A DNA stretch of 64,000 nt from Thermoplasmata archaeon (GTDB lineage Archaea; Thermoplasmatota; E2; JACPAO01; JAHFTW01), in contig JAXDQS010000012.1 of assembly GCA_034667725.1 (NCBI GenBank), positions 1 through 64,000 on the forward strand, written 5' to 3'. Positions within the stretch are counted from its first letter, which is position 1. Every line of letters begins with the position of its first letter. Shown here piece by piece: positions 59,131 to 60,348 of this stretch. Under the pieces are notes generated by a model. That model was not told the DNA's origin. It searched no databases and saw only the letters and a list, made by a program, of their open reading frames with translations. A program made the position numbers and the translations under genes.

Positions 59131-60348
59131 TGCCCCTGAACCCCCCTGCTGCCCCTAAACTCGGCGGCTGCCCCTAAAGCCAGCCAGAGCGGGCGTCCCC
59201 CGCCGCCACCGCCGCCCCGAGTGCCACGCCCCGGCCCTCCGGCGAGCCCCCGCCCGAGCCCCGACCCCGGCGAGCCCGAGCCGCGCGGTCCCGGCGAGCC
59301 CGCCCCGCCGTCGAAGTCCCGTGGGCGGGGCCTTGCGCGGCCTACGGCGCAAGAGCCACCGCGCCCCACGCTCCGGCCCGCTGACCTGCTGCAACGAGCC
59401 TGCGGTTTGCGAAGGGCTCGCCCCGTTGTCGCTGCCTGTCCGCACGGCTTGCGGACAAGGCCCGTGCGGACATGGACGCAAACGGACGCGCGGACAGTCC
59501 ATGCGGACAACGGACGCGGACGGACGCGGACACCAGGGGAAGTCCGTGTCCGTGCGGACGCGGACACGCGGACGGCCACGGTGGACAGTCCGCGGACACC
59601 GGGGGGGACCCACTTCTGCGGACAAGTCCGCGGACAGCCGTGCGGACGGACACGGACACCGCGCCACGGGAAGCGCAGGGCAAGGGCCGCAAAGCGAACC
59701 CCCGGCGCATGACGGCCCGCCTTGGCCGGTCGGGGGGCGCGAGCCTGAGCGGTCGGAAGCCGCTGCGAACACGCCGACCGACCGCCGGGACGCCGACCGC
59801 GAAAACGACCGACCACCGACCACGGGACCCTGGAAGGAGGGCGTGGCTGGCGGATGGCTCCGAGCCTGCCCGCCAGCCAGCCACCGGCCAGCCGCCAGCC
59901 CTCCCAGCCAGCCAGCCGCCAGCCAGCCGGCCATTGGAGGCGGCTGGGCCAGCCAGCCAGCCGCGCCAGCCTGCCAAACAGCCAGTCAGCCACCGGACCC
60001 CCCACCCACTTCGCCAGCCGGGCCACGCAAGCGGCATCCAGCCAGCCGACCCCCGCGCAAGGCCCCAGGCGCGAGCCGCCGAAGCCCGCCAGCGCGACCT
60101 GCGACCCTGGCCACGGCGGCGTGTCCCGTCATGGTGGGGACAAGCGCGGGGACGGGGACATGGGGACGGGGACCGGGCCAGGGACCGGGACAGCCAGCGG
60201 GACGGGGACGGGGACCGGGACACCAGGAGCAACGGGGACGAGGACAGCCAGGGGGACAGGGACGGGGACCGGGACGGGGGCACCACCACCCCCTTTGGGG
60301 ACAAGGCCGGGGACAGCCATCGGGACAAACCGACCGCGCGGGACAAGC
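59131..60348 (+). repeat. Non-coding modular array of strand-biased short repeats
   Basis: Successive blocks of TGCCCCT, CGAGCC, CGGAC (about 20), CGACC, CCAGCC (>15) and GGGAC (about 20). Counts are by eye. Confidence 0.85.

Follow-up and report, generated by a model that had tools for sequence, protein, structure and literature searches.

What kind of DNA consists of consecutive blocks, each filled with a different short word, and carries no credible gene? The question is raised by contig C12 (JAXDQS010000012.1) of a soil Thermoplasmata archaeon (assembly GCA_034667725.1, here G000; 2.32 Mb, 71% GC), of which we analysed a window of 64,000 nucleotides (positions 1 to 64,000 of the forward strand). 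The array region (59119-60682) is the gap between two divergently transcribed genes and lies in the middle of its 70.6-kb contig, with unique genes on both sides. We give an even chance to the explanation in which the window array is an orphan, paralogous to the non-coding cassettes of a Thermoplasmata transposon-like element but lacking its genes, and shaped by slippage and homogenisation. The homology on which this proposal builds was observed directly: the window matches non-coding DNA adjoining a transposase gene on another contig of the same genome, C10.

The array region does not have the composition of coding sequence. Its GC content is flat, at 0.7-0.8 over all three codon positions, versus 0.92-1.0 at the third position (GC3) of host and flanking genes, and none of its five long open reading frames matched a Pfam family. 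These two results speak against a gene for a low-complexity protein and agree with the initial annotation of this DNA, which had seen about 1.3 kb without a credible gene. The long open frames arise because the plus strand is poor in T (only 5.7% across 59437-60360), and T-poor frames of this kind should not become gene calls when such arrays are annotated.

The frequency of each word was compared with 2000 dinucleotide shuffles of its block. Inside the blocks CGGAC occurs 18 times in the forward and 5 times in the reverse orientation (shuffle maximum 8), CCAGCC 16 and 2 times (maximum 8), GGGAC 20 times and once (maximum 11), and CGACC 6 and 2 times (maximum 6). The counts of CGGAC, CCAGCC and GGGAC lie far above anything obtained by shuffling, so that these blocks are clearly non-random, while CGACC is borderline; the motif counts and coordinates given in the initial annotation were thereby reproduced.

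The array is built of cassettes of approximately 120-280 nt, in every one of which one or two inverted copies of the cassette's own word come first and direct copies follow. The correspondence is specific to each word: TGTCCGCA precedes the direct word GCGGACA, TGTCCC precedes GGGACA, GGTCGG precedes CCGACC, GTTCGC precedes GCGAAC, TGGCTGG precedes CCAGCC and TGTCCAC precedes GTGGACA. Where this was checked, the inverted copy belongs to a longer inverted repeat that closes the cassette, and the interior consists of direct copies of the word found in the inner part of the arm. The four cassettes of the window all lie on the plus strand. The CGGAC cassette (59424-59665) is closed by a 26-nt inverted repeat (59424-59449/59636-59661, 81%, with 186 nt between the arms), opens with the dyad TGTCCGCA-N5-TGCGGACA (59437-59457) and contains 21 GGAC cores, 18 of them preceded by C. 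The CGACC cassette (59728-59843) starts with two inverted GGTCGG (59728, 59751), followed by six copies of CCGACC/CGACC, and ends in a degenerate node, GACCCT-GGAAGG-AGGGCG (59826-59843). The adjoining CCAGCC cassette (59844-60118) has an inverted TGGCTGG first, within an arm (59844-59859) that pairs with 59910-59925 (16 nt, 94%); its 16 CCAGCC sit on a 4-nt lattice of AGCC, and it too ends in a degenerate node, GACCCT-GGCC-ACGGCG (60103-60118). Finally, the GGGAC cassette (60122-60360) opens with the dyad TGTCCC-N9-GGGACA (60122-60142) and also contains 21 GGAC cores, preceded by G in all but one case (20/21). Both opening dyads had been recognized beforehand, as had a CACCGG-type word within the CCAGCC block, which we located as CCCACCCACTTC at 60001-60012.

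The initial annotation knew of no feature with this layout. A genome-wide scan of 5-mer density, in which the window's two GGAC blocks rank near the top of the whole assembly, found such blocks at two places only, namely in the window and at C10:76.1-76.9 kb, and a third, smaller array was reached on contig C1 (~265 kb) through a transposase paralogue. The layout thus has two parallels within the same genome, both adjoining transposase genes. The C10 locus comprises four cassettes, filled with CCGACC (reversed), GCGAAC (reversed), CAGCC and a mixture of GCGGAC and GGGGAC, with five palindromic nodes GACCCT-N4-AGGGTC between them; clusters of this node occur nowhere else in the genome. On either side of a cassette, the 4-nt cores of the nodes form an inverted pair, each the reverse complement of the other, and no direct repeat. 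The closing inverted repeats are better preserved here, being 27 nt and perfect around a 181-nt interior in the GGAC cassette and 23 nt with 96% identity in the CCGACC cassette (C10:76104-76290), whose word is that of the window's CGACC cassette in the opposite orientation and recurs in C1. As single-stranded DNA, the C10 GGAC cassette folds with a z-score of -6.3 and the window CGGAC cassette with one of -5.2. The C1 array consists, in order, of a GCGAAC dyad, a node, seven copies of ACCCTCAG, TGTCCACGTGGACA followed by GGGACA copies, and CCGACC copies.

The window and C10 arrays are related by descent over part of their length. The CCAGCC and GGGAC cassettes are collinear with the CAGCC and GGAC cassettes of C10 (59950-60327 versus C10:76490-76856, 68% identity, BLAST E = 3.6e-25); the shared stretch includes CCCACCCACTTC, and C10:76657-76860 is the positional homologue of the GGGAC cassette. 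Deleting the cores from the alignments gave z-scores of 3.6 for the GGGAC cassette against C10 and 3.3 for CCAGCC against the CAGCC cassette of C10, showing that cassettes of the same type correspond across loci. Alignments of cassettes of different types were no better than shuffles. In particular, the window's CGGAC and GGGAC cassettes, which the initial annotation had derived from one scaffold within the locus, scored z = -0.3 once their GGAC cores were deleted, in what was the annotation's own proposed masked alignment. A scaffold within the locus is therefore unsupported except for a short tail segment, where the similarity pointed out earlier is real (59610-59647 versus 60289-60326, 76% over 38 nt).

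The C10 array lies within a transposon-like gene set on the plus strand (G000:C10:75540-79905; L011 5541-9906), which runs from a zinc-finger protein through the four cassettes to a second zinc finger, a transposase and a paralogue of the transposase N-terminal half. The first zinc-finger protein is 182 aa long and C2H2-like (CPxCGxxF...GxGGH), the second small zinc-finger gene starts at an ATG at L011 7236, and the ~300-aa paralogue overlaps the end of the transposase gene. The array occupies the space between the first zinc-finger gene and the remaining three genes, ~0.4 kb upstream of the latter, and the ~10 kb around the set have a GC3 of ~0.80-0.84, versus at least 0.92 elsewhere. A second, diverged set with a transposase of 61% identity is encoded on the minus strand of C1 (G000:C1:261576-265400; L081, L112); there, four tandem repeats of ~60 nt (GGCCGGCTGATCTCCAGGAGCAACTGGCC...TTTTAGCC), of a kind unlike the cassettes, stand between the zinc-finger and transposase genes. 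There are exactly two copies of the transposase in the genome, one next to each of the C10 and C1 arrays at a distance of 0.4-1.6 kb; genes with this finger motif number exactly three and are confined to the same two loci. The transposase (527-590 aa) matches the NCBIfam IS5 model at E = 3e-10, below the equivalog cut-off. Among six aligned family members, five match PF01609 (DDE_Tnp_1) and three weakly match SWIM; homologues mostly match PF01609 and are labelled in databases as transposases of Thermoplasmatota, and the alignment conserves the motifs PDGTG, GGDKAYD and RNNAE..N.AFK. Judged by its DDE_Tnp_1 domain and YREK-type signature, the protein neighbouring the arrays is predicted to be a transposase of the IS4/IS5 superfamily. 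A search of PDB sequences with the transposase profile gave no match.

Beside both of these arrays, on the minus strand, lie genes for winged-helix membrane proteins (G000:C10:73366-74883 and G000:C1:265565-267046). These proteins of ~500 aa have a signal peptide, an extracellular domain, one transmembrane helix and cytoplasmic winged-helix domains of the ArsR/MarR type, and are weakly alike (26% over 291 aa).

How did each cassette come to be filled so uniformly? The spacing of the GGAC cores is informative. In the window GGGAC cassette the successive spacings are 12, 6, 8, 6, 12, 6, 12, 6, 6, 6, 18, 6, 12, 6, 6, 6, 27, 12, 12 and 18 nt, and in its C10 paralogue they are 12, 6, 8, 6, 6, 6, 16, 6, 6, 23, 12, 6, 6, 6, 6, 21, 12 and 12 nt. 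The cores therefore lie on a 6-nt lattice, mostly 6, 12 or 18 nt apart; the first four spacings are identical at the two loci and the final ones similar, and the middles differ in the number of units. Tandem Repeats Finder reported periods of 4 (AGCC), 6, 11, 24 and 30 at 64-76% matches, with 22-32 copies at 64-66% for periods 4 and 6. Short-unit periodicity, differences in unit number and conserved flanks make this DNA microsatellite-like, or cryptically simple, and the combination of a 6-nt lattice, conserved ends and variable middles is the signature of slippage and concerted evolution. Homogenisation is visible in the base ahead of GGAC, which is almost invariant within each window cassette and mixed in the C10 paralogue (C 10, G 6, A 3). 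The initial annotation had envisaged duplication of a module followed by a change of motif across all its copies. The duplication of cassettes is upheld, as is, by these figures, the homogenisation of each copy towards one word; the motif change itself, in the aligned tail, comes down to ~1-3 substitutions in each cassette when measured against the mixed C10 paralogue. Slippage on such units occurs in the clade, as indicated by (GGACCC)n runs in congeners; plain microsatellites of this type, ~100 nt long, are present in congeners and family members (G007:C11:31000-31100, L132; G022:C468, L135).

We suggest that replication slippage and unequal exchange on units of 4-7 nt, seeded at a stable hairpin arm, would both create the uniform fillings and maintain them. 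The proposed seed is a GC-rich hairpin arm, because in every case amplification has affected the word found in the inner part of the closing arm. Seeding of this kind would give each cassette its own word together with a matching inverted copy, a T-poor strand, and drift towards CGGAC in one cassette and GGGAC in another.

Several relatives of the gene set in other genomes carry arrays of an ACCCT-type word. The order zinc finger, then transposase recurs in genome G012, in the soil metagenome contig L114 and in the Logan contig L124, and in the last of these the paralogue of the transposase N-terminal half again follows the transposase. Non-coding blocks rich in an ACCCT word precede the gene set at a distance of 0.7-2.5 kb in G012, G004, L114 and G000:C1: ~13 copies of GCACCCTT in L114 (3650-4000), ~9 copies of the same word in G004:C43 (L107 4150-4700), 11 copies of ACCCTC/GAGGGT in G012:C24 (L108 2400-2740) and seven copies of ACCCTCAG in G000:C1. 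In the blocks of L114, G004 and G012 the words occur in both orientations. The density of ACCCT/AGGGT is 7-13 per 300 bp in the four blocks, versus a mean of 0.5-1.5 over these loci as a whole; the locus-wide mean at the other loci scanned was 0.3-0.8. Since ACCCT/AGGGT also forms both arms of the G000 nodes, it is the conserved cis element of the family and the best candidate for a protein-binding site. Clustered to one side of the gene set, it would probably serve as a multi-site platform for a protein of the element. As proposed here, the complete element has genes for a small zinc-finger protein of C2H2-like type, for a transposase that joins a SWIM-like N-terminus to a DDE domain of IS4/IS5 type (PF01609), and for the paralogue of the N-terminal half. 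In G012 and L114 a conserved small reverse-strand gene lies between block and gene set; it has no Pfam family and no homologue in the window's genome.

The other words were not recovered in this way. Motif-density scans of transposase loci in relatives and metagenomes revealed no GGAC, CCGACC or CAGCC arrays; an apparent array match in L120 proved to lie in a ribosomal protein gene, in the part for its acidic tail. When the array was compared with 40 relatives by BLAST, GC-rich chance matches were the only result. The scaffold pattern GGACAAGKCNGNGGACAGCC had exact matches only in the window's own genome among 38 genomes of the order, and four unrelated matches in viral contigs. A two-node pattern gave six unrelated matches and no related arrays in 185,579 species genomes, and none in viral contigs.

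The window copy is most likely a relic, because its nodes have decayed relative to those of C10 and it contains no element genes; a tblastn search of the array for remnants of the zinc-finger and transposase genes gave low-complexity noise only. It is also absent from the orthologous site in related species: no array lies upstream of the DUF4332 orthologue of the left flanking gene in nine congeners, from which the exact empty-site junction was not recovered. In the same nine congeners, the 4 kb upstream of this orthologue yielded no homologue of the genes that follow the array in the window, and in G004 a gene with a counterpart at C12:69.2 kb lies only 2.4 kb from the DUF4332 gene. By this difference in gene content, the array borders a segment of ~10 kb that varies between species. 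The relic would now form the long upstream region of a surface-protein operon, where a protein-binding role is plausible. Among the candidate roles listed in the initial annotation, the connection to mobile elements comes closest to these findings, and the origin and partition roles found no support.

Several observations weigh against the orphan-element explanation. Neither terminal inverted repeats nor target-site duplications at the level of the whole element were found at C10, C1 or C12, where inverted repeats occur only around cassettes, so that any mobility of element or cassettes is putative; a search for conserved element termini downstream of the N-half paralogue also found none. The ACCCT blocks always lie on a single side of the gene set, unlike the ends of classical transposons. 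The remaining words (GGAC, CCGACC, CAGCC and GCGAAC) are seen in this genome only, so that their link to the element rests on three loci of one metagenome-assembled genome. As for slippage, conservation is much higher at the GGAC core than at the position next to it, which selection on binding sites would also produce. Selection on a dyad site, instead of seeding, could likewise account for the perfect 27-nt repeat of C10 and for an inverted copy that changes along with the word (GGAC being preceded by G, C or A at three loci).

These last points lead to the model favoured initially, in which each cassette is an array of sites for its own co-evolving DNA-binding protein, and the whole a protein-loading platform of multiple specificities that would serve as decoy, nucleation site or hub of regulation. 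We consider it unlikely. It would account for cores that are far better conserved than adjacent positions, for the operator-like dyad or inverted copy of its own word that opens every cassette, and for the co-variation of that copy with the array word (TGTCCG/CGGACA, TGTCCC/GGGACA, TGTCCA/TGGACA). Single C2H2-like fingers could read words of ~5 nt, and membrane-tethered double winged-helix proteins are encoded beside the arrays. However, three zinc-finger paralogues would have to serve at least six words, the sites are not helically phased but form a microsatellite-like 6-nt lattice of variable copy number, and words other than ACCCT have not been seen with transposase relatives in other genomes. 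Cassettes of different types, including the window's two GGAC types, share no scaffold once their cores are removed. Slippage and concerted evolution alone yield arrays in which all copies have changed, and co-evolving binders are thus not needed. Ideas based on G-quadruplexes or methylation sites were dropped, since each fits a single cassette type only. More speculative still, and in our view a long shot, is a bolder combination: the zinc-finger/SWIM-DDE elements of Thermoplasmata would be a new class of prokaryotic transposon, comparable to the eukaryotic Ac or Harbinger elements, whose dense arrays of 5-8-nt words are bound by the accessory zinc finger. In the present genome these arrays would have diversified into hairpin-closed, invertible cassettes, each specific to a different element or host protein, the window array having been co-opted as a functional multi-protein loading site upstream of the surface-protein operon.

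Alternatively, the cassettes might be invertible units, shuffled as in a shufflon by a site-specific recombinase that crosses over at the GACCCT-N4-AGGGTC nodes. The node arms are symmetric about an asymmetric 4-nt core, inverted core pairs surround C10 cassettes 1 and 4, the CCGACC and GCGAAC cassettes of C10 run in the opposite direction to those of C12 and C1, and the three loci do not have their cassettes in a common order. Yet the genome has a single tyrosine-recombinase (PF00589) match, which lies 48 kb away from the C10 array, with none near C12 or C1; arms of 6 nt are short for a known recombinase site; the nodes of the window copy are degenerate; and the cassettes contain no genes or evident promoters whose orientation would matter. 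We regard shuffling as improbable.

We think equally little of the idea that the array encodes a long non-coding RNA, displaying many copies of each word in hairpin-closed loops as a sponge for protein or RNA. Oligo-T stretches terminate archaeal transcription, and the low T content of the plus strand leaves almost none of them; the promoter-like words GCCCCTAAA stand ahead of the array at 59150 and 59169, the C1 and C10 arrays are co-directional with the flanking element genes, and the predicted folds are strong (z-scores of -5 to -6). Such scores are given by any inverted repeat, however, and two of the C10 cassettes are oppositely oriented within what would be the same transcript. Rfam 15 covariance models found no match at E <= 1 on either strand of 58000-62000, and membership in a Csr/Rsm-type sponge RNA or another Rfam family was rejected on this basis.

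That the array is the iteron-type origin or the partition centromere of a plasmid or virus integrated into the genome is very improbable. An inverted pair ahead of direct repeats is indeed found at plasmid origins, the repeats of type Ib/II centromeres are very short, the C10 array is set within ~10 kb of DNA with lower GC3, and the neighbouring winged-helix protein has a weak RP-C-like match (E = 4e-4, below the family cut-off). Against this, scans of the neighbouring proteins at C12, C10 and C1 (Pfam, PHROGs, NCBIfam) revealed no Rep, ParA/ParM or ribbon-helix-helix protein and no gene for a centromere-binding protein. GC content is 0.71-0.80 throughout, leaving no AT-rich region for unwinding; the Orc1/Cdc6 genes (C10:224 kb, C1:157 kb) are more than 100 kb from the arrays, with none on the window's contig; and the words measure 5-7 nt, not 17-22 nt, on a 6-nt lattice that is not helically phased. 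That the array is an assembly artefact is scarcely credible: simple repeats are prone to collapse and chimeric joins in short-read assemblies, but this one is embedded between unique genes, and misassembly would not give three loci on three contigs that share architecture and local order at ~68% identity.

Two further blocks precede the cassettes. Three copies of TGCCCCT(A/G)AA with a 19-nt period (59131-59178, plus strand) resemble the promoter-like word GCCCCTAAGT at 60651, and five copies of GGCGAGCC/CGAGCC with a higher-order period of 24 nt occupy 59243-59308 (plus strand). Both are marginal against shuffles (for TGCCCCT, three copies versus a shuffle maximum of 2); these two blocks of the initial annotation are small ordinary repeats. 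The TGCCCCT repeats are probably no cassette but belong to the regulatory or promoter DNA shared by the two divergent genes; they may form a tandem series of regulator or promoter-like sites directed into the array, or may serve the DUF4332 gene. The CGAGCC word is the reverse complement of that of a CTCGCC block at C10:74.97-75.15 kb, but homology between the two blocks was rejected, with an alignment score of 19 versus a shuffle mean of 21.

The native left flank of the array is a gene on the minus strand (57838-59082) that a domain scan identified as encoding a DUF4332/HhH-domain membrane protein, with orthologues in the nine congeners. To the right, a gene at 60683-61186 (plus strand) is the first of five for secreted or surface proteins, a run (60683-67723) that extends past the window. 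From its position, the plus-strand segment 60600-60682 is a putative promoter region of this operon: it contains GTCTAGC...CCTTAAGTGGGG at ~60604-60627, and GCCCCTAAGT is placed ~27 nt ahead of the GTG start at 60683. The word CCTTA(A/G)GTGGGG, which comes after GTCTAGC, has two copies in the whole assembly (window 60616-60627 and G000:C10:75344), each beside a cassette array, and is possibly a common promoter or operator. The operon includes, on the plus strand, a secreted protein of 1148 aa (window 62621-64000, continuing to G000:C12:66067) that consists mostly of thrombospondin type-3 calcium-binding repeats (DxDxDGxxDxxDNC); another protein with such repeats is encoded downstream of the C10 element (C10:80469-81887). 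A comparison of the membrane protein encoded at 61183-62646 with the two winged-helix membrane proteins that adjoin the C10 and C1 arrays found no homology.

The analysis makes a seemingly unique feature tractable by tying repeat cassettes to an undescribed gene set of archaeal transposon-like type. What the window contains is most likely an orphan in decay; it is the family of elements, together with the hairpin-seeded cassettes, that merits follow-up. How do they compare with known systems? Plasmid iterons of the RepA/RepE type, which have an inverted operator, and the short-repeat centromeres of TP228 parH and of the pSM19035 omega heptads resemble the cassettes in having an inverted pair followed by direct repeats, and in the very short words of types Ib and II. 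The arrays differ from them in having neither an initiator or partition gene nor an AT-rich region or helical phasing, and in their distance from Orc1/Cdc6. Miniature inverted-repeat transposable elements (MITEs) and foldback elements, the arms of the latter being built of short tandem repeats, have in common with the cassettes a size of ~200 nt and terminal inverted repeats of 23-27 nt. We rejected a MITE origin, because the 4-mers flanking a cassette are inverted instead of direct, so that there are no target-site duplications, and because the cassettes are not dispersed but confined to three clustered loci, with adjacent cassettes sharing a node.

In origin and dynamics the closest analogues would be microsatellites and the repeats of Borg elements. 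Like microsatellites, the cassettes have 4- and 6-nt lattices with higher-order periods, conserved ends with variable middles, and one variant homogenised per array. Unlike microsatellites, each array is enclosed in an inverted-repeat-closed cassette that starts with an inverted copy of its own unit, and ~1 kb of back-to-back arrays of different units is unusual for a prokaryote. Borgs, the extrachromosomal elements of Methanoperedens, contain perfect head-to-tail repeats with longer units (e.g. 18-21 nt; PMC9879509). Shared with the present arrays are the setting in archaeal mobile or extrachromosomal DNA, a separate unit for each region, a strand enriched in A and depleted in T, flanking partial repeats as proposed seeds, and fast evolution with absence from relatives (PMC9879509); the units described here differ in being 4-7 nt long, degenerate, interspersed with spacers and closed by inverted repeats. 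If the arrays other than ACCCT did arise by slippage seeded at hairpin arms, they would provide, alongside the Borg repeats, a compact example of the genesis and homogenisation of simple sequence in a very GC-rich archaeal genome.

In function, the closest analogues would be the subterminal arrays of eukaryotic cut-and-paste transposons. The 12-mers of En/Spm, and the PIF/Harbinger elements with their separate Myb-like binding protein, are similar to Ac/Ds, and PIF/Harbinger has its prokaryotic relative in IS5. The subterminal regions of maize Ac/Ds, ~200 bp long, contain AAACGG hexamers to which the transposase binds cooperatively, Ds being the non-autonomous form (PMC3260210). The archaeal arrays differ from this type in their host, in lying on one side only, in their tandem cassettes with different words, in the lack of any terminal inverted repeats or target-site duplications found for the element, and in that binding is here a prediction. 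They resemble it in that a word of 5-8 nt occurs many times, unevenly spaced, over ~200-300 bp beside a transposase gene, and in that transposase-less copies exist in the same genome; as in Harbinger, the element encodes a separate small protein predicted to bind DNA. If the ACCCT arrays are indeed binding platforms, this would be, as far as we are aware, the first prokaryotic element reported to combine dense short-word arrays of the Ac/Harbinger type with a separate DNA-binding partner.

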